Source: Myxococcota bacterium
GTDB lineage: Bacteria > Myxococcota_A > UBA9160 > UBA4427
NCBI GenBank assembly: GCA_965250285.1
Contig: OZ252299.1
Location: forward strand, 5,472,001 to 5,536,000
Reading direction: 5' to 3'
Length of the DNA stretch: 64,000 bases
Shown here: piece by piece, positions 1-29,445 of the stretch
Layout of the letters: every line of letters starts with the position of its first letter
Numbering within the stretch: the first letter of the stretch is position 1
Notes under the pieces: generated by a model
What the model saw: only the letters and a program-made list of their open reading frames with translations
Told to the model about the DNA's origin: nothing
Database searches by the model: none
Position numbers and translations under genes: made by a program

Positions 1-126
1 ACAAGCCGTTGCAGCGGACTTGCTACGGCTGAGGCGTTCTCGGTTCTTGGTAGAATCTCGGGCGTCCGAGGCGTTCAGCCGCTGCGAGCAAGGCCGCCGC
101 AAGCCGCTGAACGCCGACCGTTAGGC
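1..126 (+). repeat. attC site (5' end cut by window edge)
   Basis: L''/L' arms; R' GTTAGGC 120-126. Confidence 0.93.
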
Positions 127-1890: not shown

Positions 1891-2015
1891 CAAGCCGTTG
1901 CAGCGGACTTGCTGACGCTGAGGCGATATCGGGTCGTGGTACCATGTCGGTTGTCAATGGCGTCTCGGCAGGCCGTGCCAGGTCGGCGCAAGCCGCTGAA
2001 CGCCGACCGTTAGGC
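1885..2015 (+). repeat. attC site, class A variant loop
   Basis: ACCTAAC...GTTAGGC. Confidence 0.95.
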
Positions 2016-2290
2016 CGCGTGGCACAAGGCTCTCTAGTTGTTGGGTGCCGATTCCTGCCCACCGCCTTCTCGGATCGAGCAGCTCGATGCGAGCTCGCTA
2101 GCTAGTTGACCCGCTCGCTTCGCCCTTAGGTCGTTCCCGACAGATCGCATGCGACACATCGCCAGTGTGGCCACAACCGGCTCTCTGGGGCGAGCTACGC
2201 CTTCGGCCTTGCTCATCCCACTCGACTGCCGAACTCCAGCTTGGCAGGGGGTAGGGCGGCAGAGGGTCTGCTCTTCGCACGCGGTCTAAC
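2010..2290 (+). ncRNA. ORF-less cassette copy 1 (candidate structured RNA)
   Basis: ~280-bp body repeated five times; non-triplet indels between copies; nested self-complementarity. Confidence 0.55.
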
Positions 2291-2414
2291 AAGCCGTTGC
2301 AGCGGACTTGCTACCGCTGAGGCGCTTTCGGTTCTTGGTAGAATCTCGGTCGTCCCAGGCGCTCAGTCGCTGCGAGCAAGGCCGCCGCAAGCCGCTGAAC
2401 GCCGACCGTTAGGC
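2284..2414 (+). repeat. attC site, class A
   Basis: GTCTAAC...GTTAGGC. Confidence 0.95.
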
Positions 2415-2420
2415 AGCGGG

Positions 2421-3032
2421 ATGAGTGTCCACCCCGACCAAGTCAAGCCGAATCGCAAGAGTGCACTCACCGGTGGGGCTGCGCTTTTCGTCTTCCTCGG
2501 CTTTATCGTGTTCCTCGCGGTCTTCGCCGGCGATACGTCGCTTCTCTGGAAGCTCGGCGCCGTCGGGTTGCTATCAGCTGGGATCCTGGCTTCATTCCTA
2601 TGGTCGGTGCTGGGGCGAGGTGATTCTCCGACTCCACGGGGCCGTGAGCTTCGGATCGAACGGGGCCGCGTAGCTCAGGTCGAAGGCACCAAGGTCGTCG
2701 CCAGTATCGATGCAACGAAGCCGTTCGCGTACTCGATTCTTGATCGGCACATCGCGACAGACTCTCAGTTCCGCCTGTACCAAGGCCGCGTGGAACTGAC
2801 CTTCTTCAACTCCGACCCTGGCGGCGATGCAGTTGTTCGCGACGTCATCCAGATTAGCTGGCCGCCTCCGAGTCGCGGTGCCAGCAGAAGCGTGGGTCCC
2901 TCATGGGTCGATGGGCTGTCTGCTCAGGCCGATGCTCCGCCCGGCCCGAAGCAAGCACGTTGGCTTGAAGCCCTTACTCTACTCGTGGTCGCCGGTGCAT
3001 TCGCGATCGCATTCGTGGTTCTCTGGCGCTAG
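2421..3032 (+). CDS. Membrane protein cassette (homologue at 52212)
   Basis: ATG just after R'; shares TF.NSDPGG and RGASRSVGPS motifs with 52212 ORF. Confidence 0.85.
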   Translation: MSVHPDQVKPNRKSALTGGAALFVFLGFIVFLAVFAGDTSLLWKLGAVGLLSAGILASFLWSVLGRGDSPTPRGRELRIERGRVAQVEGTKVVASIDATKPFAYSILDRHIATDSQFRLYQGRVELTFFNSDPGGDAVVRDVIQISWPPPSRGASRSVGPSWVDGLSAQADAPPGPKQARWLEALTLLVVAGAFAIAFVVLWR

Positions 3033-3048
3033 GGGGGAACGCGCCGCA

Positions 3049-3179
3049 GCCTAACAAGCCGTTGCAGCGGACTTGCTGACGCTGAGGCGGTATCGAGTCA
3101 TGGTAGAATGCCGGGCGTCCGAGGCGTTCGGTCGCTGCGAGCAAGGTCGCCGCAAGCCGCTGAACGCCGACCGTTAGGC
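3049..3179 (+). repeat. attC site, class A
   Basis: GCCTAAC...GTTAGGC. Confidence 0.95.
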
Positions 3180-3186
3180 GGCGCTC

Positions 3187-3603
3187 GTGAGGCTGCTCGT
3201 ACTAGCGACGCTGACAGCATTCCTCGCCTTTCCCCTCGGCGCGTGGGCGCGTTGTCCGCGCGTGTCGGGCCCCCTCGCAGAGTCCGACCTTCGGTCGGTC
3301 GATCTCATCGTCTTCGGTCGCGTCGTGCACGTCGAGCAGGTGCCGAGTGCGCCTCATGAGCGGTTCGCCGACATCCTGGTGCAAGCGCGCTGGCAGGGCG
3401 AGTCACTCGAACGGGTCAGAGTTTGGCCTCCCGACAGCGTTCACGGCCCACGCTTCGTCGCGGGCAGCGAGTTTCTCGTCTTCGCAAACCGGGTCGGCGA
3501 CCGCTACGAAGCCAGCATGTGCCTTCCTTCATGTACCGGGTCCAACTGCCTATACCAGCTAAAACTCCTAGGCGACCCAGTCGAGCGATTCGATACCGGC
3601 TAG
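3187..3603 (+). CDS. Secreted TIMP/NTR-like domain protein cassette
   Basis: Signal peptide, early Cys, DLIVFGRV, WQG, F..G.EFLVFA, terminal Cys cluster. Confidence 0.65.
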   Translation: MRLLVLATLTAFLAFPLGAWARCPRVSGPLAESDLRSVDLIVFGRVVHVEQVPSAPHERFADILVQARWQGESLERVRVWPPDSVHGPRFVAGSEFLVFANRVGDRYEASMCLPSCTGSNCLYQLKLLGDPVERFDTG

Positions 3604-3612
3604 TCAGGCGCC

Positions 3613-3744
3613 GCCTAACAAGCCGTTGCAGCGGACTTGCTTACGTTTGAGCCGATTTGGGTCGTGGTACTATGCCGAATGTCGATGGCGTCTCGGCAGG
3701 CAGTGCCAAATTGGCGCACGCCGCTGAACGCCGATCCGTTAGGC
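3613..3744 (+). repeat. attC site, class A variant loop
   Basis: GCCTAAC...GTTAGGC. Confidence 0.93.
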
Positions 3745-4018
3745 CGCGTGGCACAAGGCCCTCTAGTTCTTGGGTGCCAATTCCTGCCCACCGCCTTGTC
3801 GAGTCGAGCAGCCCGTTGCGAGCTCGGGCGCTAGCTGACCTGCTTGCTTCGCCCTTAGGTCATTCCCGACAGATCGCATGCGACGCATCGCCAAAGTGGC
3901 CACAACCGGCTCTCTGGGGCGATCTTCGCCTTCGGCTTGCTGGTCCAACTCGACTGCCGAACTCCAGCTTGGCAGGGGGTAGGGCGGTAGCGGGCCGGCT
4001 CTTCGCACGCGGTCTAAC
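3739..4018 (+). ncRNA. ORF-less cassette copy 2
   Basis: Homologous to 2010-2290. Confidence 0.55.
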
Positions 4019-4142
4019 AAGCCGTTGCAGCGGACTTGCTACCGCTGGGGTGCTTTCGGTTCTTGGTAGAATCTCGGGTGTCCGAGGCGTTCAGTCGCTG
4101 CGAGCAAGGTCGCCGCAAGCCGCTGAACGCCGACCGTTAGGC
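4012..4142 (+). repeat. attC site, class A
   Basis: GTCTAAC...GTTAGGC. Confidence 0.95.
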
Positions 4143-4416
4143 CGCGTGGCACAAGGCCCTCTAGTTGTTGGGTGCCGGTTCCTGCCCACCGCCTTCTCGA
4201 GTCGGGCAGCTCGTTGCGAGCTCGGGCGCGAGCTGACCTATCTGCTTCGCCCTTAGGTCACTCCCAATAGATCGCATGTGACGCATCGCCAAAGTGGCCA
4301 CAACCGGCTCTCTGCGGCGAGCTTCGCCTTCGGCCTTCTCGTCCTACTCGAGTGCAGAACGCCAGCTTGGCAGGGGGAAGGGCGCCAGAGGGTCCGCTCT
4401 TCGCACGCGGTCTAAC
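4137..4416 (+). ncRNA. ORF-less cassette copy 3 (tandem with copy 2, diverged)
   Basis: Homologous to 2010-2290. Confidence 0.55.
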
Positions 4417-4540
4417 AAGCCGTTGCAGCGGACTTGCTACCGCTGAGGCGGTCCCGGTTGTTGTTAGGATCTCGGGCGTCCGAGGCGTTCAGTCACTGCG
4501 AGCAAGGCCGCCGCAAGCCGCTGAACGCCGACCGTTAGGC
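4410..4540 (+). repeat. attC site, class A
   Basis: GTCTAAC...GTTAGGC. Confidence 0.95.
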
Positions 4541-4545
4541 AGCGA

Positions 4546-4806
4546 GTGCCGAGCTGGCTCCGAAAAATGTACTGGACCGGTATCCAGATACTCGTAGCCG
4601 GGCTCGCGTCTTCCGCCGGCGCGGTCTACTTCTTGTTGCGACCCGTCGGCGAGTATCACGAGCCTTCCGGCTACGGCGAACGACTGGTCGTCGGGCTAGC
4701 CCTGTTCGGCGTTGTCGCGACCATCGGAGGCGCTCGCATTGTCCACCAGGCCAGGCGTTCCGCACCGAATGCCGAGAGTCATCCGAACGAGAATCCACCT
4801 TCGTAG
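4546..4806 (+). CDS. Small two-TM membrane protein cassette
   Basis: ORF fills cassette; two hydrophobic segments. Confidence 0.75.
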   Translation: MPSWLRKMYWTGIQILVAGLASSAGAVYFLLRPVGEYHEPSGYGERLVVGLALFGVVATIGGARIVHQARRSAPNAESHPNENPPS

Positions 4807-4840
4807 GGCTAACGAGCGACGCCATCAGGCCCCGCTCGCT

Positions 4841-4971
4841 GCCTAACAAGCCGTTGCAGCGGACTTGCTAACGCTTAGGCGATATCGGGTCGTGGTAGAA
4901 TCTCGGGCGTCCAAGGCGTTCAGTCACTGCGAGCAAGGTCGCCGCAAGCCGCTGAACGCCGACCGTTAGAT
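4841..4971 (+). repeat. attC site, class A
   Basis: GCCTAAC...GTTAGAT. Confidence 0.95.
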
Positions 4972-4985
4972 GGCGCGAGCGGGTC

Positions 4986-5399
4986 TTGATGCGTTCTCGG
5001 TTGAGCCTTCTTCTGCTGCTCTCGATCGTGCTCCTTCTGTCGATCGCCTGCGACCCCATATACCGTCTACGCGTCACCGGGCCGGTGCCAACGGCGCCGG
5101 TGCCAGACTGCGTGCTCGAATCGCTCGACGCCGACGACCGCGTCACCGAGCCGTCGATAGTGACTCCTGGCGCAATAGCGGCGACGCTAGTCGTACCACC
5201 GAGCATGTCAGTTCCGGAGTCGCATCCCGAACTATCGGTGCACTTCTCCCATACTGAAACGTGGGGTGGTGATCTCGAGATTCAGATGCTGTGGGTGGGC
5301 CCCAAGGCCTCGCGAGAGTACGAGCAGTACGCAACGAATGTCATTCGCGAGCTCCACTTTGTTCTCACCAAGAGGTGCGTTCCGCCCTCCGCCACATAG
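4986..5399 (+). CDS. Putative lipoprotein cassette
   Basis: Hydrophobic leader ending LSIAC. Confidence 0.8.
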   Translation: MMRSRLSLLLLLSIVLLLSIACDPIYRLRVTGPVPTAPVPDCVLESLDADDRVTEPSIVTPGAIAATLVVPPSMSVPESHPELSVHFSHTETWGGDLEIQMLWVGPKASREYEQYATNVIRELHFVLTKRCVPPSAT

Positions 5400-5415
5400 C
5401 AGTTGGGCGCGCGCC

Positions 5416-5544
5416 ATCTAACAAGCCGTTGCAGCGGACGTGGCAACGCCTATGCCGTATCGGTCGTGGTAGGCTTACGGTTTTCGAGGCTTCGGCGTTC
5501 GCGGTGCAAGGTTGCGCCACGCCGCTGAACGCCGACCGTTAGAT
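5416..5544 (+). repeat. attC site, class B (CGTGGC/GCCACG inner stem)
   Basis: ATCTAAC...GTTAGAT. Confidence 0.95.
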
Positions 5545-5558
5545 GGCGGAGACGCGAG

Positions 5559-5906
5559 ATAGGACGTTACAAGTTCAAGCTTGGCCAGAAGCCACGACGA
5601 AAGCGCCGGTTAGATTCCGGGCGTACGCGCATTCGTCGAGGTGGCGATCCGACGGCAGCAGGAAGAGAGCGGGGCGATCCGATTTCTCCCGAAGAGCGTT
5701 GGGTTCCGAGCTTCGACGACGTAATTGCAGCATTGGTCGTCATTTCGCTGATCACATTCTTCATTGCCGCGTTCTGTTCTCTTGGCCACTGTTCATGTGC
5801 GGGGCTGAGTGCTTACTCGAACTCTCGAGTGAGTCTCGTCACTCCGTTGCCCCTGCAGATTCGCCCGCCATCTAACAAGGCGTTGCAGCGGACTTGCTTA
5901 GGCTGA
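5559..5906 (+). CDS. Basic N-terminal single-TM protein, probable ATA start (homologue of 35326 ORF)
   Basis: Hand translation IGRYKFKLGQKPRRKRRLDSGRTR...WVPSFDDVIAALVVISL matches [24 protein letters not shown]...[17 protein letters not shown]; stop inside attC. Confidence 0.65.
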   Translation: MGRYKFKLGQKPRRKRRLDSGRTRIRRGGDPTAAGRERGDPISPEERWVPSFDDVIAALVVISLITFFIAAFCSLGHCSCAGLSAYSNSRVSLVTPLPLQIRPPSNKALQRTCLG

Positions 5907-6000
5907 GGCGATATCGGGTCGTGGTAGACTGCCGGGTGTCCGAGGCATTCAGCCGCTGCGAGCTAGGTCGCCGCAAGCCGCTGAACGCCGACCGTTAGGC
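5870..6000 (+). repeat. attC site, class A
   Basis: ATCTAAC...GTTAGGC. Confidence 0.95.
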
Positions 6001-6040
6001 GGCGACGCATTCGCCCGATCGTCGACGTGGGCGGGCTGCA

Positions 6041-6214
6041 TTGATCGATCTACTCGTCGGTCTCCTAGATCTCAGCCATCTCTGGCGCCTCTTTCTGCCA
6101 CCGGTTCTTCTGGGCGCAGCATGCTTCTTCGCCTGGGGCGGGTCGGCAGCGCAGTACGGTGCTGTAGCCGGTCTTCCTATCGGCCTGGTTTGGGCGCTTC
6201 GACATCGGAGCTAG
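6041..6214 (+). CDS. Small (57 aa) membrane protein cassette
   Basis: TTG-start ORF MIDLLVGLLDLSHLWRLFLPPVLLGAACFF..., below ORF-track size cutoff. Confidence 0.55.
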   Translation: MIDLLVGLLDLSHLWRLFLPPVLLGAACFFAWGGSAAQYGAVAGLPIGLVWALRHRS

Positions 6215-6267
6215 CGCTCATTTCGATCTTCCAAAGGCCGTCTGTTGTCGCGTACTCGCCGGTCGCC

Positions 6268-6398
6268 GCCTAACAAGCCGTTGCAGCGGACTTGCTAACG
6301 CTTGAGCCGATTCGGGTCGTGGTACCATGGCAGCTGTCGATGGCGTCTCGGCAGGCTGTGCCAGATCGGCGCAAGCCGCTGAACGCCGACCGTTAGGC
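6268..6398 (+). repeat. attC site, class A variant loop
   Basis: GCCTAAC...GTTAGGC. Confidence 0.95.
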
Positions 6399-6446
6399 GG
6401 CGGAACTGTGTGCTGAAGCGTGCCGCGGGAATGACGGAGCCCTTCG

Positions 6447-6740
6447 ATGAAGCGAACAGCCTACTCGCCCGAACTGCAGTCGGAACTCGCACATGGTAAG
6501 TATACGAAGTGGGCAGCTGATCTGACTGAAGCCGAGCTTTACAACCTGCTATGGCTCGTAGGCGAGTTCGGCGTTCGCACGCCAGAAGACAGCGAGGGGC
6601 CGGTGATCGGCGCGAGTCACCGACGCGCCGGCGCTCGCTGGGGCATAGTTCAGTATGTCCGCTGCCGGCGAGCGGTGTCGTTCCAGCGCGCCATACGTCG
6701 TTACAATCCAGACGGCTCGTTGAGAAAGCCGAGTGCCTAG
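6447..6740 (+). CDS. Hypothetical protein cassette (duplicated at 13226)
   Basis: ORF fills cassette. Confidence 0.65.
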   Translation: MKRTAYSPELQSELAHGKYTKWAADLTEAELYNLLWLVGEFGVRTPEDSEGPVIGASHRRAGARWGIVQYVRCRRAVSFQRAIRRYNPDGSLRKPSA

Positions 6741-6750
6741 CTCGTCCGCC

Positions 6751-6881
6751 GCCTAACAAGCCGTTGCAGCGGACTTGCTAACGCTGAGGCGATATCGGGT
6801 CGTGGTAGACTGGCCGGTGTCCGAGGCGTTCAGCCGCAGCGCGCAAGGCCGCCGCAAGCCGCTGAACGCCGACCGTTAGGC
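6751..6881 (+). repeat. attC site, class A
   Basis: GCCTAAC...GTTAGGC. Confidence 0.95.
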
Positions 6882-6889
6882 GGCACTCG

Positions 6890-7255
6890 ATGCTTGGCCT
6901 GGCTCGCGCACGGGGCTTGGGTGCTCGCTTGGAGAACGTGGCTCTCTTTGCAGGGCTCACTACTGTGTCCCTGCTCTTCGTGGCCTTGCGCAAGACTTAT
7001 CTCTATCCCGACGATGTCACCATTCCATACCTAAGCGGTCCCAGGCTCTGGTTCTCCGCGAGTCTAATTGCAGGTACCGTCGGCGCCTCTTTGGTGCTTC
7101 GTGTTCGGCGCTCGCAGCGTCTCCGTTTGCGCGGCGTCGCTGCTCTTTCGCTGTCTGCGAGTCCGCTCGTTCTCGTGCTCGCGCTGCTTGTTGTGGTCGC
7201 CGTGGCCTATGTGGCCGGGGTCCAGGTTTTCATCTGGGCGCAAGGTGCCGCCTAA
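6890..7255 (+). CDS. Membrane protein cassette
   Basis: Three hydrophobic segments; stop in R''. Confidence 0.8.
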   Translation: MLGLARARGLGARLENVALFAGLTTVSLLFVALRKTYLYPDDVTIPYLSGPRLWFSASLIAGTVGASLVLRVRRSQRLRLRGVAALSLSASPLVLVLALLVVVAVAYVAGVQVFIWAQGAA

Positions 7256-7380
7256 CAAGCCGTTGCAGCGGACTTGCTCCCGCTGAGGCGATATCGGGTC
7301 GTGGTAGACTGGCCGGCGTCCGAGGCGTTCAGCCACTGCGAGCAAGGCCGCCGCAAGCCGCTGAACGCCGACCGTTAGGC
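7250..7380 (+). repeat. attC site, class A
   Basis: GCCTAAC...GTTAGGC. Confidence 0.95.
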
Positions 7381-7388
7381 GGCCGCTC

Positions 7389-7772
7389 GTGCACGTTCGT
7401 GTGATCTTCATCGGTCTGCTGCTGCTCGGCTCAGCTGCTGGCGACGTCGCTCTTGCAGAACCGGCTTGCCAGATGCCGCCTGATTCTGCCTCGGTCCGAT
7501 CTCGGGTCCTGGGGGCGACGCGTCTGCTTCCAACTTACGTCGATGGAAAGATGGTCGGGCTCACCGTCGACCAGATCGATCCCGACAGTCTCCTGGCACC
7601 TTCCGATCTGCGCGTTGGTGACATGATCGTTGCAGTCAACGGACTCGATATCACCAACCCAAAGTCCGGTAAAGAACTCCTCTGTCGCCTGGGTCGATCA
7701 GAACCGGTCACTATTCATGTTGAGCGAGATTCCGGCGAGCGCGTCCCCATCACCATCGCCGCGGCCGCCTAA
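7389..7772 (+). CDS. Secreted PDZ-domain protein (GspC C-terminal PDZ-like)
   Basis: DGKMVGLTV..IDPDS....LRVGDMIVAVNG...IHVER PDZ pattern; signal peptide. Confidence 0.8.
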   Translation: MHVRVIFIGLLLLGSAAGDVALAEPACQMPPDSASVRSRVLGATRLLPTYVDGKMVGLTVDQIDPDSLLAPSDLRVGDMIVAVNGLDITNPKSGKELLCRLGRSEPVTIHVERDSGERVPITIAAAA

Positions 7773-7897
7773 CAAGCCGTTGCAGCGGACTTGCTAACGC
7801 TGGTTCGATATCGGGTCATGGTAGACTGCCGGGTGTCCGAGGCGTTCAGTCGCTGCGAGCAAGGCCGCCGCAAGCCGCTGAACGCCGACCGTTAGGC
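7767..7897 (+). repeat. attC site, class A
   Basis: GCCTAAC...GTTAGGC. Confidence 0.95.
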
Positions 7898-7905
7898 GGC
7901 CGCGG

Positions 7906-8352
7906 GTGGGTAGCGAAGCCGATCAGATCGAGAAGATCCTTTCTCGCCGCAAGAATGCGCGCGCGAGGCTTTCGCTGTCCTACATGTCCGACACAAAGTG
8001 GGCTCGCGCGCTCACAGCGCTCGCCGAGAAGCACCCGGGCCTCCATTGCACATGGAAGCTGGTAGGCAACCCGGAGCCGTGTCCAGGCCATCTGCCGATC
8101 GAGCCCCCGTTGCGCCAGCAAAGCCACCTCGACGACGGCTGGCTGCTGGCGCCGTTCTTCTTACTCCCGAACTACAGCGATGTCGAATGGCTGGAGGTGC
8201 CAGCTCGAGCCCGTTGGCAGCCGCATCCGAAGCTAGAGCCCGTCACTTCTACTCAAGACATTCAGTCGATCGCCCAAACCCTCGAGGCCGTTGGCTCTCT
8301 CGAACTCGAGGCAACTGAGACGCACCTGCGGCTATACGGCTATCGCCCCTAG
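7906..8352 (+). CDS. Hypothetical protein (DUF6678-like)
   Basis: MSDTKW, Y.DVEWLEV, C-terminal LRLYGYR. Confidence 0.65.
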   Translation: MGSEADQIEKILSRRKNARARLSLSYMSDTKWARALTALAEKHPGLHCTWKLVGNPEPCPGHLPIEPPLRQQSHLDDGWLLAPFFLLPNYSDVEWLEVPARARWQPHPKLEPVTSTQDIQSIAQTLEAVGSLELEATETHLRLYGYRP

Positions 8353-8361
8353 ACGCGCGCC

Positions 8362-8492
8362 GCCTAACAAGCCGTTGCAGCGGACTTGCTCACGCTGAGG
8401 CGTTGTCGGGTCGTGGTAGAGTCACGGGCATCCGAGGCGTTTAGTCGCTGCGAGCAAGGCCGCCGCAAGCCGCTGAACGCCGACCGTTAGGC
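8362..8492 (+). repeat. attC site, class A
   Basis: GCCTAAC...GTTAGGC. Confidence 0.95.
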
Positions 8493-8528
8493 GGCGCGGG
8501 TATCGCTGCAATCGCTAGCGTCACGGGG

Positions 8529-8894
8529 ATGCCGATCGGTAGGTCGCTCACTTATCCGGGCCGCGCAGTAGCCGCTTTCTTGGCCGTCTGGGGCATCGGG
8601 CTGGCCGTAGCATCAGCAGTCTCTCTCGTGCTTGGGCAGTTTCCTGCCTCGCTTGGCCTTGGCGGCGCGATCTCTGCTCTCGTAGTGACTTCCCTTGTGT
8701 CTGCCTACGCAATTCGGTCCGGCCTCGCTCGGCTAGCTCTCGCGTCGTACGCTGCTTGGTCGGTCCTGCTCTTCGGGCTGTTTTTCCATGCCGTCTATGA
8801 CCCTGGTCGTCCACAAGACGTGTTTGGCTATGCGTTTGCGGCTCTCTTTCTCGGCCTTCTGGGTCTCTATCTCGCGCGACAGCTGCGGCACTAG
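8529..8894 (+). CDS. Four-TM membrane protein cassette
   Basis: Hydrophobic ORF filling cassette. Confidence 0.8.
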   Translation: MPIGRSLTYPGRAVAAFLAVWGIGLAVASAVSLVLGQFPASLGLGGAISALVVTSLVSAYAIRSGLARLALASYAAWSVLLFGLFFHAVYDPGRPQDVFGYAFAALFLGLLGLYLARQLRH

Positions 8895-8911
8895 CAGGTT
8901 GTCGCGTCGCC

Positions 8912-9042
8912 GCCTAACAAGCCGTTGCAGCGGACTTGCTAACGCTGAGGCGATATCAGGTCGTGGTAGAATGGCGGGCGTCTGAGGCGCTCAGTCGCTG
9001 CGAGCAAGGCCGCCGCAAGCCGCTGAACGCCGACCGTTAGAT
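8912..9042 (+). repeat. attC site, class A
   Basis: GCCTAAC...GTTAGAT. Confidence 0.95.
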
Positions 9043-9056
9043 GGCGGAGACGCGAG

Positions 9057-9404
9057 ATAGGACGTTACAAGTTCAAGCTTGGCCAGAAGCCACGACGAAA
9101 GCGCCGGTTAGATTCCGGGCGTACGCGCATTCGTCGAGGTGGCGATCCGACGGCAGCAGGAAGAGAGCGGGGCGATCCGATTTCTCCCGAAGAGCGTTGG
9201 GTTCCGAGCTTCGACGACGTAATTGCAGCATTGGTCGTCATTTCGCTGATCACATTCTTCATTGCCGCGTTCTGTTCTCTTGGCCACTGTTCATGTGCGG
9301 GGCTGAGTGCTTACTCGAACTCTCGAGTGAGTCTCGTCACTCCGTTGCCCCTGCAGATTCGCCCGCCATCTAACAAGGCGTTGCAGCGGACTTGCTTAGG
9401 CTGA
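9057..9404 (+). CDS. Duplicate of the 5559 cassette ORF
   Basis: 9037-9492 reads identical to 5539-5994. Confidence 0.65.
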   Translation: MGRYKFKLGQKPRRKRRLDSGRTRIRRGGDPTAAGRERGDPISPEERWVPSFDDVIAALVVISLITFFIAAFCSLGHCSCAGLSAYSNSRVSLVTPLPLQIRPPSNKALQRTCLG

Positions 9405-9498
9405 GGCGATATCGGGTCGTGGTAGACTGCCGGGTGTCCGAGGCATTCAGCCGCTGCGAGCTAGGTCGCCGCAAGCCGCTGAACGCCGACCGTTAAGT
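9368..9498 (+). repeat. attC site, class A
   Basis: ATCTAAC...GTTAAGT. Confidence 0.95.
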
Positions 9499-9516
9499 GG
9501 CACGATCGGCGGCCAG

Positions 9517-9987
9517 GTGGTGACTCTCGAACTCCGGTGGTCCAAGACGAAGCTCTATCTGTATCTGGCCGGCTCTTGCGCTTTCGTAGCTGGCAGCATT
9601 CTGGCCGATCTCCAGTGGTGGGAACGCGCGCTCGCTGCTGTCATTGGTGTCGTCGGCTCGGTGGCTCTTGCGCTGCGCCTTCAGCGGCAGACCCAACCGG
9701 TCTTGGTCATCTCGCCGGAAGGAGTTCAAGACTCCCGACTGACGCCGTCCCTCATGCCGTGGTCAACGATCGAGGCGGTGCAGTTCGAACCCAAGTACTT
9801 CCGCGGTGGTGCGATCCTCGTTGACCTGCACGCCGGTCTTCCAACTCCGACGGTCAACGCCAGCCTCTTCACGACACGAGGTCACTCGCCGACAGCTCAA
9901 GAAGGGCGTGTCAGGCTGCCGCTGTACGATCTGTCCTTCGACTCAGGCGCGGTGCGTCAGGCTCTCGAAGCCACGCGTGCCACCTAA
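9517..9987 (+). CDS. Membrane protein with PH-like soluble domain (STM3941-like)
   Basis: Two TMs then PVLVISPEGV.D....MPWSTI; stop in R''. Confidence 0.7.
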   Translation: MVTLELRWSKTKLYLYLAGSCAFVAGSILADLQWWERALAAVIGVVGSVALALRLQRQTQPVLVISPEGVQDSRLTPSLMPWSTIEAVQFEPKYFRGGAILVDLHAGLPTPTVNASLFTTRGHSPTAQEGRVRLPLYDLSFDSGAVRQALEATRAT

Positions 9988-10112
9988 CAAGCCGTTGCAG
10001 CGGACTTGCTAACGCTGAGGCGATATCGGGTCGTGGTAGACTGGCCGGTGTCCGAGGCGTTCAGCCGCAGCGAGCAAGGCCGCCGCAAGCCGCTGAACGC
10101 CGACCGTTAGGT
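9982..10112 (+). repeat. attC site, class A
   Basis: ACCTAAC...GTTAGGT. Confidence 0.95.
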
Positions 10113-10121
10113 GGCGGGGGA

Positions 10122-10583
10122 ATGGAGCCGGCGACAGACGACGACCTGCGCCCAGTACTCCCCGGAGAGCGCTGGACGCCACCTACTAACTTGGCAGCAA
10201 GACTCTTCTTCACCCTCCTTCGCCGCATACATGACCAACAAGACTGGGTCTGGCGGGGCGACGAGCCACACGTCAGTCTGGTGTTTCTGACTGCCATCCC
10301 CCAGGTTCTAAACGTGGCGACCCTCTTGGAATTCTTCATCCCACGTGAGAACGCCATCAGGCTAGTCGGCCCCGAACTCTCAAGCGCTATCGGCGTCTGC
10401 GCTGTTTCGCTGCCTGTTCTTCTTGAGGTCTGGTGGCTTCGCGAGCCTGGGCGACTCCACGTGGTGATCTGGGAAGCAGATACCTATCGATACTTGTCGG
10501 GCCCTATTGGTACTGCCCTGGTGGTCGCATACGTAGTGGGTTCGTTTCTTCTCTTCGGTCTAGTCGCCACGCCCGCCACCTAA
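10122..10583 (+). CDS. Membrane protein cassette
   Basis: ORF fills cassette; stop in R''. Confidence 0.8.
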   Translation: MEPATDDDLRPVLPGERWTPPTNLAARLFFTLLRRIHDQQDWVWRGDEPHVSLVFLTAIPQVLNVATLLEFFIPRENAIRLVGPELSSAIGVCAVSLPVLLEVWWLREPGRLHVVIWEADTYRYLSGPIGTALVVAYVVGSFLLFGLVATPAT

Positions 10584-10706
10584 CAAGCCGTTGCAGCGGA
10601 CGTGGCAACGCTTATGCCATGCCGGTCGTGGTAGGCTTGCGGAGTCCCAGGCGTCCCGAGCCGCGGTGCAAGGTTGCGCCACGCCGCTGAACGCCGACCG
10701 TTAGGC
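10578..10706 (+). repeat. attC site, class B
   Basis: ACCTAAC...GTTAGGC. Confidence 0.95.
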
Positions 10707-10723
10707 AGCATGGTCGTGTCTCC

Positions 10724-11077
10724 GTGGACGTGATCTCCGTCGAAGAATGGCAGCTCACCTCATTCTTCGAGGTGCTGCCGAGCTACCCCGATCCCGACTC
10801 ACCGTGGCCGTACACGGAAGTGGTCTATGAGGTCACCCGTGGTGACCTCTCGATGACATGCGCCATCTGCCCCGCGTACCGAGATGTCCGTCTCATTGTC
10901 CGTCACGGTGAAGCCGTCTCATACGAGTTGAACGCCACCCAGGTCCAGGATCTTTCCTACACGAAGGACGCTTCGGGCGAATCGTTGCGAATTGCGACCA
11001 GCGATTCTGAGTACATCGACCTGCGCCTCAACCCAGGTATCTCGATCAAGCACACAGTCGACCACCAGTTCGACTAG
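10724..11077 (+). CDS. Hypothetical protein cassette
   Basis: ORF fills cassette. Confidence 0.8.
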   Translation: MDVISVEEWQLTSFFEVLPSYPDPDSPWPYTEVVYEVTRGDLSMTCAICPAYRDVRLIVRHGEAVSYELNATQVQDLSYTKDASGESLRIATSDSEYIDLRLNPGISIKHTVDHQFD

Positions 11078-11087
11078 TGCGCATGCT

Positions 11088-11218
11088 GCCTAACAAGCCG
11101 TTGCAGCGGACTTGCTAACGCTTGGGCGATATCGGGTCGTGGTAGACTGCCGGTTGTCCTAGGCATTCAGTCGCTGCGAGCCAGGTCGCCGCAAGCCGCT
11201 GAACGCCGACCGTTAGGC
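11088..11218 (+). repeat. attC site, class A
   Basis: GCCTAAC...GTTAGGC. Confidence 0.95.
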
Positions 11219-11228
11219 AGCATCTCCC

Positions 11229-11690
11229 GTGCCGGAAGTTCGCGTCGTTATCCCGGACGAAACCTACGGAATCGTCAAGTTTCGCCAAGACGATCTCCCT
11301 GGTGTTGCCGTCATCAACAAGTCGTTGGTTGGATTCGCGTCGCGGGAGGTCTTTCGGTGGCATCTCTCGATCATGGTCCACTTCGAAGAGATCATCGACA
11401 ACGGTATGCCTGCTCAGGCTGACGTTGGTCTCGTAGATCGATTCGGCGATCAGCTAGATCAGGAACTCAAAGTCGACTCTGAGCGTCCGAATGCCCTCTT
11501 CCTGGGGCGTGTGACCTGGAACGAGACTCGTGAGCTCATCTATCGGGTATACGACCCGGAAGTCACGAACGACCTTCTCCAGCGAATCGTGAGCGATCGA
11601 ACGCATCCTCGAGAGTTCGACTATCGCATTGACGATGATCCTGACTGGGGCCTTGCAGAGTGGCATCTGAATGCGTGCGCTCCCGCTTAA
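11229..11690 (+). CDS. DUF695-family protein
   Basis: NGMP, LFLGRVTWNETRELIYRV, DDDPDW motifs. Confidence 0.75.
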   Translation: MPEVRVVIPDETYGIVKFRQDDLPGVAVINKSLVGFASREVFRWHLSIMVHFEEIIDNGMPAQADVGLVDRFGDQLDQELKVDSERPNALFLGRVTWNETRELIYRVYDPEVTNDLLQRIVSDRTHPREFDYRIDDDPDWGLAEWHLNACAPA

Positions 11691-11702
11691 TGCCCCGATG
11701 CT

Positions 11703-11833
11703 GCCTAACAAGCCGTTGCAGCGGACTTGCTTACGCTGAGGCGATCTAGGGCCGTGGTAGACTGACCGGCGTCCGAGGCGTTCAGCCACTGCGAGCAAGG
11801 CCGCCGCAAGCCGCTGAACGCCGACCGTTAGGC
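11703..11833 (+). repeat. attC site, class A
   Basis: GCCTAAC...GTTAGGC. Confidence 0.95.
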
Positions 11834-12107
11834 CGCGTGGCACAAGGCTCTCTAGTTGTTGGGTGCTGAATCCTGCCCACCGCCTTCTCGAGTCGGGCAG
11901 CTCGTTGCGAGCTCTCCAGCTAGCTGACCCGTTCGCTTCGCCCTTAGGTCATCCCCGACAGATCGAGCGCGACGCATCGCCAAAGTGGCCACAACCGGCT
12001 CTCTGGGTCGAACTTCGCCTTCGGCCTGCTCATCCCACTCCACTGCCGAACTCCAGCTTGGCAGGGGGTAGGGCGCCAGAGGGTCTGCTCTTCGCACGCG
12101 GTCTAAC
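11828..12107 (+). ncRNA. ORF-less cassette copy 4
   Basis: Homologous to 2010-2290. Confidence 0.55.
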
Positions 12108-12235
12108 AAGCCGTTGCAGCGGACATCGTCCAGCTGAGGCGATATCGGCTCTGGTAGTTTCTTGGCAACGAACCAAGTGCGTTCAGCGAGACCGGTCAGC
12201 AGCTGGCCGATGCCGCTGAACGCCGACCGTTAGAC
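12101..12235 (+). repeat. attC site, class C (CATCGTCCAGCTG/CAGCTGGCCGATG stem)
   Basis: GTCTAAC...GTTAGAC. Confidence 0.95.
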
Positions 12236-12251
12236 AGCCGGAGCGGCGCCT

Positions 12252-12632
12252 GTGACGCTCGATCAAGCGCTGATCGCGAGCCTCGGAATCGGAATGCTTG
12301 CGTGCATTGCCCTCGTTCTCAGGGGCTATATCGAGGTTCGCATTCGATTCAGTGGCTTTCTCAGGTCCGAGCGCCCGGAACTATGGTCGCAGCTCGCCCC
12401 TTCTCACAACGACTCCGAAGAGTTCGTCACCCTGGGCATTTTGAGCTTCGATCCCACGCCAGCAATTTCGCGTTTTCGACGCGGGGGCTTTCGCGAGCTC
12501 GCCGACACCGAGCTTTCTGCGCGCTGTGCGCATGCGAACCGCGCGGAGCGCATCGGACTTCTCTCGTGGTTCGCCCTGCTCGCGTGGACGTTGGTCGTGT
12601 TCGGAGTCATCATCGCCTTGCGTGCCGCGTGA
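12252..12632 (+). CDS. Two-TM membrane protein cassette
   Basis: ORF fills cassette. Confidence 0.8.
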   Translation: MTLDQALIASLGIGMLACIALVLRGYIEVRIRFSGFLRSERPELWSQLAPSHNDSEEFVTLGILSFDPTPAISRFRRGGFRELADTELSARCAHANRAERIGLLSWFALLAWTLVVFGVIIALRAA

Positions 12633-12639
12633 ACCGGCT

Positions 12640-12771
12640 GTCTAACAAGGCGTTGCAGCGGACACCGAACAGCTGGATCGAATCGACCGTGTTAGCCTCT
12701 TGGCATCAACCCAGGTGCTTCATCGGCCCGGTCAGCGCCGTCCGGTGCCGCTGAACGCCGATCCGTTAGGC
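12640..12771 (+). repeat. attC site, class D (CACCG/CGGTG stem)
   Basis: GTCTAAC...GTTAGGC. Confidence 0.93.
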
Positions 12772-12801
12772 GGCGTTCGAGTTGACTCGAGACGTACTCG
12801 A

Positions 12802-13053
12802 ATGACAAGGTCGCCGTGGTTGACAGGCTTGGCCCTTGGCATCGTGATCGGGGCCATCGCGGCCGGCTTCGCTGTGTTCGCGGCTCTCGATCACAACCCG
12901 CAGGGCGAGTTCCAGCGCGGTGGCTCGGTCCAGGTCGGTCCTCTTCTCTTGATAGGTGGTAGCTGGTTCGGACTCGTGGGCGCCGTTGTGTGGCTTGTGT
13001 TGGGCTCGGCTCTGGCGATTCTCCGACGAAGGCGCGAACACCACGCCGCCTAA
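12802..13053 (+). CDS. Small membrane protein cassette
   Basis: ATG after R'; DHNPQGEF loop between two TMs; stop in R''. Confidence 0.75.
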   Translation: MTRSPWLTGLALGIVIGAIAAGFAVFAALDHNPQGEFQRGGSVQVGPLLLIGGSWFGLVGAVVWLVLGSALAILRRRREHHAA

Positions 13054-13177
13054 CAAGCCGTTGCAGCGGACGTGGCAACGCCTTCGCTCTATCGCTGGTG
13101 GTAGAATTTCCACATCCCAGGCTTCGGCCGTCGTGGTGCAAGGTTGTGCCACGCCGCTGAACGCCGAACCGTTAGGC
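13048..13177 (+). repeat. attC site, class B
   Basis: GCCTAAC...GTTAGGC. Confidence 0.95.
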
Positions 13178-13225
13178 GGCGGAACTGTGTGCTGAAGCGT
13201 GCCGCGGGAATGACGGAGCCCTTCG

Positions 13226-13519
13226 ATGAAGCGAACAGCCTACTCGCCCGAACTGCAGTCGGAACTCGCACATGGTAAGTATACGAAGTGGGCAGCTGAT
13301 CTGACTGAAGCCGAGCTTTACAACCTGCTATGGCTCGTAGGCGAGTTCGGCGTTCGCACGCCAGAAGACAGCGAGGGGCCGGTGATCGGCGCGAGTCACC
13401 GACGCGCCGGCGCTCGCTGGGGCATAGTTCAGTATGTCCGCTGCCGGCGAGCGGTGTCGTTCCAGCGCGCCATACGTCGTTACAATCCAGACGGCTCGTT
13501 GAGAAAGCCGAGTGCCTAG
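13226..13519 (+). CDS. Duplicate of the 6447 cassette ORF
   Basis: Identical translation. Confidence 0.65.
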   Translation: MKRTAYSPELQSELAHGKYTKWAADLTEAELYNLLWLVGEFGVRTPEDSEGPVIGASHRRAGARWGIVQYVRCRRAVSFQRAIRRYNPDGSLRKPSA

Positions 13520-13529
13520 CTCGTCCGCC

Positions 13530-13660
13530 GCCTAACAAGCCGTTGCAGCGGACTTGCTAACGCTGAGGCGATATCGGGTCGTGGTAGACTGGCCGGTGTC
13601 CGAGGCGTTCAGCCGCAGCGCGCAAGGCCGCCGCAAGCCGCTGAACGCCGACCGTTAGGC
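13530..13660 (+). repeat. attC site, class A
   Basis: GCCTAAC...GTTAGGC. Confidence 0.95.
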
Positions 13661-13676
13661 CGCAACTCGAGCTTGA

Positions 13677-14111
13677 ATGATGCGATGGTCGGTAGATACG
13701 GCGGACGCGCACCGTCTTCTTTGGGCGGTCCTTGATCACTTTGAAGGCAATGCGCTTGTCTCGTTCGAGGGCAGGCTTTCCGACCTCGGGCTCTCGCCCA
13801 TTTCTGGTGCCCGATCAGACGAGTCTTCGGTACTTCGCAGGCACACACAGCTCCCAGTTCAAGACTTCGTAGTTCTACCCGTGAACCGTGAGACGATTCG
13901 CGACGTGAAGCGCTGTCTCTCAGACGTCGAGCTCATCGACGAGTCCGGGCCGGTCATTCACGTCCAGGTCCAATCGGGCGACTCCCTAGTTCTCGGGGCG
14001 TACGACAATTTCGATCCCGAGTGCGTCGTGGTCTGGCCCCCTACGCCAGAGGCGTTGCTTCAAGGGCTCCTCGAGGCCGGCGCCCTCCGCTCGTACAACG
14101 TTGCGGCCTAA
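13677..14111 (+). CDS. Hypothetical protein cassette
   Basis: ORF fills cassette; stop in R''. Confidence 0.8.
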   Translation: MMRWSVDTADAHRLLWAVLDHFEGNALVSFEGRLSDLGLSPISGARSDESSVLRRHTQLPVQDFVVLPVNRETIRDVKRCLSDVELIDESGPVIHVQVQSGDSLVLGAYDNFDPECVVVWPPTPEALLQGLLEAGALRSYNVAA

Positions 14112-14236
14112 CAAGCCGTTGCAGCGGACTTGCTACCGCTGAGGCGATATCGGTCCGTGGTAGCATGGCGGGCATCCGAGGCGTTCCGTGACTGCGAGCA
14201 AGGCCGCCGCAAGCCGCTGAACGCCGACCGTTAGGC
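14106..14236 (+). repeat. attC site, class A
   Basis: GCCTAAC...GTTAGGC. Confidence 0.95.
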
Positions 14237-14512
14237 CGCGTGGCACAAGGCCCTCTAGTTGTTGGGTGCCGATTCCTGCCCACCGCCTTCTCGAGTCGGG
14301 CAGCTCGTTGCGAGCTCTCCAGCTAGCTGACCCGTTCGCTTCGCCCTTAGGTCATCCGCGACAGATCGAGCGCGACGCATCGCCAAAGTGCCCACAACCG
14401 GCTCTCTGGGGCGACCTTCGCCTTCGGCCTGCTCTCATCCCACTCGACTGCCGAACTCCAGCTTGGCAGGGGGTAGGGCGCCAGAGGGTCTGTTCTTCGC
14501 ACGCGGTCTAAC
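14231..14512 (+). ncRNA. ORF-less cassette copy 5
   Basis: Homologous to 2010-2290; 2-nt insertion relative to copy 4. Confidence 0.55.
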
Positions 14513-14640
14513 AAGCCGTTGCAGCGGACATCGTCCAGCTGAGGCGACATCGGCTTTGGTAGCTTGTTGGCATCGAACTCTGTGCGTTCAGCGAGAGCGG
14601 TCAGCAGCTGGCCGATGCCGCTGAACGCCGACCGTTAGGC
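14506..14640 (+). repeat. attC site, class C
   Basis: GTCTAAC...GTTAGGC. Confidence 0.95.
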
Positions 14641-18658: not shown

Positions 18659-18792
18659 GCCCAACAAGGCGTAGCAGCCGACCGTCGACGGCCTGGTTCG
18701 ATTGATCTTCTTTGCCATCTGGCGGCATACTTGTGTGGCCGGATCGGATCCGGTCAGCGCTGTCGCTGGCCGCTGAACGCCAACCACTGCGC
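18659..18792 (+). repeat. Degenerate attC (R' lost)
   Basis: GCCCAAC...CCGCTGAACGCC then no GTT. Confidence 0.75.
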
Positions 18793-18818
18793 AGCGCGAA
18801 TAGGGCATTCGGTCGAAC

Positions 18819-19343
18819 GTGACGTTGTCAGACCTAGCAGCGATCGGCGAGGCCGTCGGCGGGGCGGCGGTCCTCATCACGCTTGGCTACCTCGCGTATC
18901 AGTTTCGGCAGACGGCCGCGATCGAGCGAACGGCCGGCCAGAGAGACCTTCTCAGTCGATGCAGATCGTGGGTTGAGCTTACGATCACCCACGACGGGCT
19001 CTTCGAGACGCTCTGCAAGGTCCTCGCTGACTGGGAATCGGCCACCCCGGCAGAGAGAGAACGCGTCAATGCGTGGGCGCTATCCGCCGCGCTGCAAGCC
19101 GAGCAGGCGCTCTACATGCGAAGGGAAGGTCTCATCAACGAGGCCTCCTATCGCGGCTTCGTCAACGTCGCGGTTTCCATCGCTGCGACTCCGGGCGGGC
19201 GGCACTGGTGGAAGAACGCACGAATCGCGCTGGGCGACGATATCTCTGACTTGATCGACCTCGAGCTCGAATCGCGGCCGACGGATGCGCTCGACTGGAC
19301 GCAGATCTTCTCTCATTGGTCCGAGGAGTCGTCTTTCTCGTGA
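18819..19343 (+). CDS. 'TL.YLA.QIR' family protein
   Basis: DLAAIGEAVGG..TLGYLAYQFRQ; TPGGRHWW. Confidence 0.85.
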   Translation: MTLSDLAAIGEAVGGAAVLITLGYLAYQFRQTAAIERTAGQRDLLSRCRSWVELTITHDGLFETLCKVLADWESATPAERERVNAWALSAALQAEQALYMRREGLINEASYRGFVNVAVSIAATPGGRHWWKNARIALGDDISDLIDLELESRPTDALDWTQIFSHWSEESSFS

Positions 19344-19365
19344 GCCACCCCATTACCATGCACCG

Positions 19366-19494
19366 CATGCCGCGCGGTCGGAGCAGATGTGGCAACGCCT
19401 GTGGCCTTCGGCTGGTGGTACACTTTCTGAGTCCAAGGCTTTGGCCGTCGTCGTGCAAGGTCGCGCCACGCCGCTGAACGCCGATTCGTCAGGC
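19366..19494 (+). repeat. Degenerate class B attC (R' = GTCAGGC)
   Basis: TGTGGCAACG...GCCACGCCGCTGAACGCCGA; TGGTACACT retained. Confidence 0.8.
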
Positions 19495-19501
19495 CGCGCG
19501 A

Positions 19502-20296: not shown

Positions 20297-20431
20297 CCAG
20301 CGGTGGCCGCGGGTGTGGCTCCGGGGCTGCGATCACGCGCGTGGTAGAGTCTCGAATTCTCGGGTGTCAGCAGCCCCGGTGCCCGGTGGCGCCACGCCGC
20401 TGAACGCCGACCGTCAGGCAGAAGCTCAAAG

Positions 20432-20896: not shown

Positions 20897-21131
20897 TCTG
20901 CGCTGTCGTCGGAGCGCGCGTGGTAGAATCACGGCTTCGAAGGCGTGAGCACGCATTGCGGCGAGCCGCCGCAAGCCGCCGAGCGCCCACCGCTCGAAGG
21001 CGACAGCGGAGGTCGAGACGATCGTCGACTATCCCTACCGATTTCGCTTCAGATGGGCTCGTGGCCCGGGGTCGACCGGTCCAGTCGAGCTCGGCGACCT
21101 GAGAGGCCTGATCGTCAGTGCGGGCATCGCC

Positions 21132-21455: not shown

Positions 21456-21654
21456 GACGAGTCGACGTGTGCCCTCGCGAAGGCCATGGCAGTGAGCTTG
21501 CACCTGCGAAGGGGGGCCGGATCATTGAAGCTTGGCCGGCGTTCATGCCATTCGGTCGCCGCGCGCTGACCTGTTGCGCAGCAGCGAGACCCGAAGCCCT
21601 GAGCGTCGAAAACCGCTGCACGCGCAGCGCAGCCACAGGGAGAGGTCGCAGGTT

Positions 21655-29351: not shown

Positions 29352-29445
29352 CGTCGCGCCGACGACGTTGGGCTCTCGAACATCGGGTGCCCGACTCGCA
29401 TCGAGTGCCTGGAACCCACGCGTCATACGCAGGAGCCCTGAAAGC

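Follow-up and report, generated by a model that had tools for sequence, protein, structure and literature searches.

In large integron arrays the cassettes with the most copies are often gene-less, a puzzle since 2006, and an array in a Myxococcota bacterium (assembly GCA_965250285.1) offers a clean test of why such cassettes multiply. The window analyzed (the whole stretch of 64,000 nucleotides, positions 5,472,001 to 5,536,000 of contig OZ252299.1) holds repeats that the original prediction, made from the letters alone, had described as five diverged copies of an ORF-less cassette folding into a long nested rod, a candidate new non-coding RNA. All five copies were confirmed, each between two attC sites; the predicted lengths comprise the body plus one extra base, and the bodies themselves run TTA..TAA:

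2010..2289, + strand: gene-less cassette body c1, 280 bp
3739..4017, + strand: gene-less cassette body c2, 279 bp
4137..4415, + strand: gene-less cassette body c3, directly behind c2, 279 bp
11828..12106, + strand: gene-less cassette body c4, 279 bp
14231..14511, + strand: gene-less cassette body c5, 281 bp

The integrase gene intI and four further copies, u1–u4 (G000:C1 5467040, 5469355, 5470772, and 5471723), lie upstream of the window, in the region G000:C1:5462834-5472001. The family had been called the most abundant cassette of the stretch, and it accounts for 9/49 cassettes of this one chromosomal integron. Its nine copies are all full length and 84–97% identical, whereas the next repeated cassette families comprise 3, 2, and 2 copies at 99.7–100% identity. 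The copies are scattered along the array (positions 5, 10, 13, 15, 19, 22, 23, 38, and 43) with differing neighbors, and they make up nine of its ten shortest cassettes. GTTRRRY and RYYYAAC core sites bound each body, and an attC follows it. An attI-like GTTAGGC junction precedes the first cassette, and the integrase (TIGR02249, 438.9 bits, above the cut-off; G000:C1:5462834-5463778) contains no stops and is co-directional with the cassettes. Three sequencing runs of one study contain these repeats; contigs confirmed the DNA, the cassette variants checked being known copies. The repeats are diverged, protein-free gene cassettes (body plus attC) behind an intact intI.

The absence of a protein had been argued from non-triplet indels, which are real (1–2 nt, all in alignment columns 202–203), and frame, pN/pS, and codon-score tests agree that no frame holds a conserved protein. 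Across six frames, pN/pS was 0.69–0.98, variable columns were spread over codon positions as 20/19/19, and the sole frame open in all copies had a codon score resembling wrong frames. At 63% GC, chance frames of >50 codons occur in the bodies, and these are not conserved as protein. The paralogues are alike over their full length with neither a synonymous-position pattern nor ORF-like conservation, one part of the definition of Boucher et al. (2006), which also asks that ORFs >150 bp and protein database matches be absent. Sequence evidence largely refutes a small protein of 41–46 aa from the bottom strand, which we regard as extremely unlikely: 9/9 copies do share a frame on that strand that runs 57 codons without a stop, and a GTG that never varies follows AGAGAG by six bases, but such a frame would be open by chance with probability 0.23, its pN/pS is 0.84, and its codon score falls in the 2nd–4th percentile of true cassette genes. 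A Pfam search of two bottom-strand frames gave one match, to DUF6396, which is sub-threshold and spans the frameshifted part.

Nor do the bodies carry a recognizable sigma70-type promoter, a mark of gene-less promoter cassettes. As had been noted by eye, there is no clear −10: the scan of positions 1800–4600 (three copies) returned 0 sigma70 promoters and no terminator-like sites, and the hexamer TAnnnT is absent from the top strand of 9/9 bodies. A weak TGnCAnnnT occurs on the bottom strand in 7/9, and the top strand is mildly C-rich (C 0.34 vs 0.31 ± 0.02).

The rod itself fared less well. The complementary segments named in the original prediction do exist. The proposed arm GGCCGCGTG/CACGCGGTC is the complement of the cassette ends (attC core), measuring 11 bp in the family and a median of 11 bp in 39 other parsed cassettes. 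With this arm removed, fold z-scores were −2.6 to +1.0 (mean about −0.5) for top-strand RNA, −0.6 to +0.9 for bottom-strand RNA, and −1.7 to +1.3 for DNA, and 80-nt windows were also near 0. Two-sided changes affected 0/36 proposed pairs and 0/82 top-strand pairs covaried; no significant covariation was found, an outcome named in advance as counting against the candidate, at the low power given by nine related copies. Among the shorter pairings, GGTGC/GCGCC is present with one pair broken in 5/9 copies, and CTGCCGA/TTGGCAG with two pairs broken in 3/9. GCCTTCGGC, described as invariant, is so in the five window copies but overall only in 7/9, and the bottom-strand GCGAAGC is intact in 9/9 at one site and in 5/9 at the other. 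GGCCCTCT/AGAGGGTC held up better, with a pairing probability of at least 0.68 in 8/9 copies. One 8-bp closing helix was predicted consistently, and the long nested rod is otherwise mostly unsupported.

A highly structured rod-like RNA, or a folded signal in bottom-strand single-stranded DNA, is accordingly very unlikely in our estimate. The top-strand 5′/3′ duplex does rank with the strongest controls (−37 to −42 kcal/mol, reached by only 4/36 other distinct cassettes; per-copy p 0.035–0.185), helices 19–26/253–260 and 45–51/241–247 were 98% paired, and RNAalifold on the bottom strand gave 4/84 pairs with two-sided changes. Against this stand the z-scores of RNA and DNA folds, which stay near 0 whether whole bodies or 80-nt windows are folded (which leaves the suggested single-stranded hairpin role unsupported), the lack of top-strand covariation, an alternative model no better than shuffles (75–119 of 500), and interior helices predicted in just 1–5 of 9 copies. 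In positions 1800–4600 (three copies), Rfam 15 gave only IRES_Bip, at 13–14 bits against a gathering score of 40. Covariation combined with stability above shuffles, the mark of a structured non-coding RNA, was not seen among these nine related copies, whose power is low, and they yielded no credible consensus structure. A kissing-hairpin fold, for which 248–263 served as the one compensatory pair, did not rise above shuffles, and by-eye comparison with consensus patterns showed no fit to a hammerhead, a group II intron domain V, or sigma54.

The attC sites proved more informative than the bodies. Those belonging to the family, the motif that they carry upstream of each window copy, and the decayed part of the array are:

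1..123, + strand: attC of u4; the u4 body finishes on position 1 of the window
2287..2411, + strand: attC of c1, common type, of a sub-lineage common to u1, u4, c2, and c3
4015..4139, + strand: attC of c2, also holding the predicted promoter for c3
4413..4537, + strand: attC of c3
12104..12232, + strand: attC of c4, 129-nt type, intact only behind u2, c4, and c5
14509..14637, + strand: attC of c5, 129-nt type
1937..1945, + strand: TGGTACCAT, extended −10-like motif of the attC preceding c1; a predicted promoter
3665..3673, + strand: TGGTACTAT, extended −10-like motif of the attC preceding c2
4064..4072, + strand: TGGTAGAAT, extended −10-like motif of the attC preceding c3
11755..11763, + strand: TGGTAGACT, extended −10-like motif of the attC preceding c4
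14158..14166, + strand: TGGTAGCAT, extended −10-like motif of the attC preceding c5
18660..37760, + strand: decayed array tail, in which none of the 15 attC relics detected retains both R boxes

A top-strand TGnTAnnnT was found in 54/54 attC sites of this genome (shuffles 4.6 ± 1.9; reverse strand 2), wholly inside the attC and 66–72 nt before its end. Relatives share it (119/149 attC of 13 genomes; shuffles 10 ± 3.5; reverse 7), and 12/15 relics in the decayed tail that have lost their R boxes retain it. We read the motif as a putative sigma70 extended −10, whose consensus it fits. Positions T−12, A−11, and T−7 are conserved on the sense strand, and the motif is enriched upstream of host genes: it precedes 7/57 first tRNAs vs 0.45% of random windows, and in 1900 ORF upstream regions it occurs 84 times in sense vs 23 in antisense (random windows again 0.45%). 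From these sequence patterns, the attC sites of the array probably double as promoters, class-wide, and the top-strand transcription from the upstream attC that had been proposed is plausible, given the motif in every attC and the predicted promoter. As an array-wide feature, such a motif has no description that we found in the open-access literature. It goes against the standard model of promoterless cassettes and an expression gradient from Pc; if confirmed, attC promoters would account for continued expression along long arrays and decayed ones in this group. Rather improbable as a whole is a wider proposal, a class-wide integron type in which every attC would be a promoter, expression would no longer fall with distance from Pc, recombination-dead sites would be kept as promoters, and lineage-own multicopy RNA-only cassettes, this 280-bp family and those of two relatives among them, would serve as mobile regulatory RNAs or insulators.

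The family appears private to its genome. BLAST against 101 relatives gave one 36-bp match, which falls within a protein-coding gene far from any attC; 225 class genomes gave only matches of 20–57 bp (E above 3e-4), none confirmed by nhmmer, and 401 phylum genomes gave matches in the own genome only. The sequence-only model R1 found two weak matches in 151 order genomes (E 7e-4 and 1.6e-3), at loci without attC. Pattern searches of viruses (2 matches) and metagenomes (8) returned only what nhmmer showed to be chance, and a 22-mer had 0 matches in the genome collection. No homologue was found in plasmids and phages, in 45 loci with attC arrays (0 matches; some of 24 of these loci repeat arrays already sampled), or in one same-genus genome (fragmented, 83% complete). 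These negatives mean "not found" rather than "absent", since many assemblies are fragmented, repeated cassettes are often lost from them, and exact patterns miss diverged relatives. Two relatives, G020 and G067, own private gene-less families (412 bp and 341–370 bp). That of G020 likewise has a fold z near 0 and no Rfam match, and a search of 225 genomes yielded nothing homologous to it over its full length. A search for motifs common to the private families of different genomes turned up nothing beyond 8-mers. The sequence family is new; its kind, paralogous non-coding integron cassettes, is already described in Vibrio.

Within the family, conservation of the body sequence is non-random. Variation is clustered (83 runs vs 119 ± 7 expected), and gamma rates beat uniform ones by about 10 BIC units. 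Columns 12–59 (7/48 variable) and 108–123 (0/16 variable) form conserved blocks beside neighbors with 26/48 and 22/35 variable columns. Recombination or homoplasy is evident in 202/496 incompatible informative site pairs, and body identity is uncorrelated with attC identity (rho 0.11). Indels number 3 vs about 144 substitutions, compared with 29 vs 457 in attC relics (p 0.08, not significant). Three CTTCGC repeats, 77–78 nt apart, could be regulator sites in a DNA-level reading; a hidden 77-bp tandem repeat was discarded (TRF, 0 rows). So were a depletion of GGA, which was noticed post hoc and lies within the 5–10% tail of background cassettes, and an excess of C>T over G>A as proof of top-strand RNA (p 0.12).

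We hypothesize, at less than even confidence, that the nine cassettes act in cis as predicted untranslated spacer RNAs that damp read-through into the cassettes that follow, and that integrase-driven duplication keeps them. Every attC motif would drive the cassette behind it, the gene-less family included, the motif being observed and its function predicted. The resulting RNA would be ribosome-free for about 280 nt plus leader, with its ends closed by a short stem. It would be terminated (Rho is present in the host genome) or degraded, cutting read-through from upstream promoters, and the next cassette would then depend on its own attC promoter. Excision and re-insertion by the integrase would spread the cassette, recombination between copies would shuffle bodies and attC types, and the conserved blocks would represent the closing stem and sequence signals instead of a rigid rod. 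A role in cis would account for the retention of many scattered copies. In class 1 integrons of E. coli, untranslated stretches reduce downstream cassette mRNA (PMC11511950). Several observations count against the spacer reading. For Vibrio gene-less cassettes, expression was unchanged by Rho inhibition (bioRxiv 10.1101/2023.11.21.568050). Insulation might bring little benefit if all attC sites are promoters. The decayed tail (18660..37760) holds no copy of the family, and together with a 5-site cluster at G000:C1:109240 it bears the motif with 0/19 family copies (Fisher p 0.053). The three scanned copies lack a terminator-like site and the C-richness is mild; c2 and c3 lie side by side, an arrangement for which a spacer has no use; and polarity follows from any untranslated sequence, leaving the conserved blocks unexplained.

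Almost as likely as this cis-acting spacer, though somewhat improbable in itself, is a passenger, selfish or neutral. Such a cassette, being short and cheap, would be duplicated by the integrase, drift, and be patchily homogenized by recombination, with any RNA a by-product. Its dominance among the shortest cassettes, its restriction to the intact array (absent from the immobilized tail and the small cluster), its privacy to one genome beside unrelated private families in relatives, and the missing fold signal all fit, and a passenger status has already been proposed for Vibrio non-coding cassettes (PMC1382264). Strong block-wise conservation with rate heterogeneity, and nine full-length copies that have diverged where other repeated cassettes are about 100% identical, speak against a passenger, but gene conversion or mutation hot spots could mimic both. 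We consider unlikely a trans-acting small RNA, loosely folded, that would use invariant single-stranded blocks to pair with mRNAs or as protein-binding sites. The upstream promoter motif, invariant pyrimidine-rich blocks, a closing helix predicted in 8/9 copies, three one-sided changes that preserve top-strand pairing, and the precedent of sRNA-Xcc1 (as cited in PMC8876359 and PMC6557892) would suit it. However, no terminator marks a 3′ end in the three copies scanned, conservation stops at the own genome, a single copy would do and none is fixed in the immobilized tail, and no piece of the internal invariant blocks longer than 13 nt recurs exactly anywhere else in the genome. Quite unlikely, too, is a DNA-level cis element or a promoter cassette of the Vibrio/Treponema type working through an alternative sigma factor or regulator: the bodies lack a sigma70 consensus, the attC sites already all carry the promoter motif, and the excess of CTTCGC was chosen post hoc from 11 motifs at a level that other families do not share.

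If each attC carries a promoter, the explanation that gene-less cassettes supply promoters becomes redundant, and the cassette is an RNA, a spacer, or a parasite. Known systems frame that choice. The closest are the paralogous non-coding cassettes of Vibrio (Boucher et al. 2006, PMC1382264), likewise without an ORF, the most repeated type of their array, 84–88% alike over their full length (84–97% here), without reported homologues beyond close kin, and posing the same selfish-versus-regulatory question. The family described here differs in its unrelated sequence, 63% GC, lineage, co-directional intI, and promoter-like motif in every attC. The gene-less promoter cassettes of Vibrionaceae and Treponema (Blanco et al., bioRxiv 10.1101/2023.11.21.568050; Tansirichaiya et al., PMC6557892) share an intact attC in a long sedentary array and, in Treponema, a co-directional intI, and like them our family is predicted to alter its neighbors' expression. 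Their bodies, of 335–515 bp, carry promoters, whereas the bodies of about 280 bp here have no sigma70 motif and the motif lies in every attC. For a small RNA on an integron cassette, sRNA-Xcc1 of Xanthomonas is the precedent given in PMC8876359 and PMC6557892; it is reported as reverse-oriented upstream of symE and present in 13 species, unlike the multicopy, private, ORF-less body here, which has no Rfam match. In Vibrio sp. DAT722 (Michael and Labbate 2010, PMC2945992), an attC-associated promoter element likewise drives the next cassette; the −10 described there is unique to one cassette, whereas here the motif lies inside 54/54 attC sites and most of those in relatives.

The window opens within a chromosomal integron array, whose intact part contains 49 attC sites, corresponding to the 48 cassettes between them and the first one behind attI. 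The five gene-less copies reported for the window lie at the coordinates originally predicted, and four additional copies upstream bring the family to 9 of the 49 cassettes (array positions 5, 10, 13, 15, 19, 22, 23, 38, and 43); the host genome holds no further copy. Identity among the nine copies is 84–97%, whereas the three other repeated cassettes are 99.7–100% identical, so the family is old and not recently duplicated. It is near certain that these repeats constitute a family of gene-less integron cassettes.

Other features of the host integron loci (main array start, L015; second cluster, L016)
Host contig G000:C1:5462834-5463778 (L015:2834-3778), same direction as the cassettes: intI, in an "unusual", Treponema-like layout
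Window 5539-5875 and 9037-9373, and L015:7439-7775: 337-bp cassette present in three identical copies, with a 110-aa ORF starting at base 5 and lacking a Pfam hit; possibly coding, or else another type without a gene
L015:5432-6921: 1490-bp two-gene cassette near attI, of lower GC and far longer than the others; possibly a defence or toxin-antitoxin pair, judging from its layout
G000:C1:109240-111530 (L016): second cluster, with five same-family attC sites and no adjoining integrase
L016, about 2880-3230: cassette whose start resembles, by eye, that of the 337-bp cassette

Several measures argue against a protein-coding family. Variable columns among the nine copies are spread over the codon positions (20/19/19), and pN/pS is 0.69–0.98 in all six frames. 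One bottom-strand frame is open for 57 codons in every copy, an outcome with a probability of 0.23 when the changes seen are placed at random, and its codon score falls at the 2nd–4th percentile of 119 real cassette genes. The sole Pfam hit (DUF6396) was under the cut-off. An antisense peptide is exceedingly improbable.

The original prediction described a long nested rod formed by a structured non-coding RNA, or alternatively a bottom-strand ssDNA role. Fold scores, pair changes, and Rfam left the rod unsupported. The rod's outermost arm consists of the two core sites pairing with each other; it spans 11 bp in the family, against a median of 11 bp in the 39 other parsed cassettes. For the nine bodies without this pairing (40 shuffles each), fold z-scores ranged from −2.6 to +1.0 for top-strand RNA, −0.6 to +0.9 for bottom-strand RNA, and −1.7 to +1.3 for DNA of both strands, with averages in 80-nt windows between −1.2 and +0.6. 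RNAalifold found two-sided changes in 0/82 top-strand and 4/84 bottom-strand pairs; the structure as first drawn, plus one hairpin that we added, had none in 36 pairs, and no Rfam match came near the gathering score. The structural support left over is modest. A helix at 19–26/253–260 is predicted in eight of nine copies, three of its pairs varying one-sidedly with top-strand pairing preserved, and among 36 other distinct cassettes, four reach the 5′/3′ duplex energy (per-copy p 0.035–0.185). Interior helices are predicted in one to five copies. Because nine related copies (tree length 0.56) give low power to detect covariation, weak structure is still compatible with the data; a rigid rod or ssDNA signal is very unlikely.

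Variation along the body is nevertheless clustered (83 runs vs 119 ± 7), and gamma-distributed rates are favoured (alpha 0.81). Some blocks, columns 108–123 among them, are invariant, while neighbouring columns vary at more than half of sites. The indels (3 events vs about 144 substitutions) are confined to a single spot, a scarcity that is not significant relative to decayed attC sites (p 0.08). Recombination among the copies is suggested by two observations: of 496 informative site pairs, 202 proved incompatible, and body identity does not track attC identity, as a distinct 129-nt attC type lies behind u2 (an upstream copy), c4, and c5 (both in the window). Part of the conservation pattern may therefore stem from gene conversion or hot spots. 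The motif CTTCGC occurs three times in the body, 77–78 nt apart (alignment columns 109–114, 186–191, and 265–270), possibly by chance.

The attC context provides a stronger signal than the cassette family itself. Every one of the 54 intact attC sites in the host genome has a top-strand TGnTAnnnT, located 66–72 nt before the attC end, in which T, G, T, A, and the final T never vary (shuffled sequences, 4.6 ± 1.9; reverse strand, 2). This motif matches the sigma70 extended −10 consensus.

Examples of the attC motif
Window 47-55, top strand: attC −10 motif
Window 1937-1945, top strand: attC −10 motif
Window 4064-4072, top strand: attC −10 motif

Among relatives, with C allowed at the first hexamer position, 119 of 149 complete attC sites carry it (shuffles, 10 ± 3.5; reverse strand, 7), a count that weighs more than the host's because host attC sites are related to each other. 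Motif-bearing loci include L049–L068 and several of L077–L100. In the host, the motif is enriched at expected promoter positions, lying upstream of 7/57 first tRNAs (five at 16–20 nt) and of 84/1900 ORFs in sense vs 23 in antisense (random windows, 0.45%). In the decayed tail of the array (window 18660–37760), 12 of 15 detected relics retain the motif and none both R boxes; profile detection is biased toward conserved features, but the training set had R boxes that were no less conserved than the motif. This suggests that the tail cassettes have been domesticated. Many genes there and beyond are members of a single paralogous family that shares a segment at the N-terminus (repeat families D15 and D16). 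Judged from these patterns, a predicted attC-borne promoter is likely across the class. The open-access literature searched held no description of an array-wide attC promoter motif; the nearest cases are a single promoter that spans an attC in Vibrio DAT722 (PMC2945992) and scattered starts inside one attC (bioRxiv 10.1101/2023.11.21.568050).

Each family copy would be transcribed from the attC ahead, whichever cassette owns it. As predicted originally, the body contains no sigma70 motif of its own, so we see no sign of, and no need for, the "promoter cassette" role known for gene-less cassettes (bioRxiv 10.1101/2023.11.21.568050). Read-through would be expected to fall across 280 nt of untranslated RNA; in class 1 integrons, it is lowered by cassettes that are poorly translated and by an untranslated tail of 98 bp (PMC11511950), and Rho is present in the host. 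Our tentative preference is for a spacer whose untranslated RNA would lower read-through in cis, every step of which, transcription and function alike, we infer. A selfish passenger is only slightly less probable: of the 10 shortest cassettes, 9 belong to the family, which is absent from the immobilised tail and small cluster (0/19, p 0.053). Numerous dispersed copies accord more readily with action in cis than with a trans-acting sRNA, which we consider unlikely, and an element acting at the DNA level seems less likely again.

No homologue of the family turned up in samples of the class, order, and phylum, in pattern scans of viral, metagenome, and genome collections, among plasmids and phages, or at 45 loci that hold related attC arrays; many of the genomes covered are fragmented. 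The start of the attC is shared by records whose titles name Myxococcota, Deltaproteobacteria, Binatia, and others. Two of 13 relatives (20 array regions, picked mostly for many attC hits) have gene-less paralogue families of their own, unrelated in sequence to the host family.

Gene-less families in relatives' genomes G020 and G067
L055:361-3157 and L056:1825-2236 (G020): five copies, about 412 bp, 83-90% identity; likewise private and unstructured
L054:6434-6758 and L056:1377-1701 (G020): two copies, 325 bp
L049:13783-19669 (G067): three copies, 341-370 bp

The two larger families are A-poor on the top strand (10–13% A). attC sites bearing a predicted promoter and recurring private gene-less families in the class make the old question of gene-less cassettes testable. 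The host family belongs to an already known kind, paralogous non-coding integron cassettes, and together with those of G020 and G067 it matches the pattern in Vibrio, where, according to Boucher et al. (PMC1382264), non-coding cassettes are paralogous at 84–88%, lineage-restricted, and selfish or regulatory.
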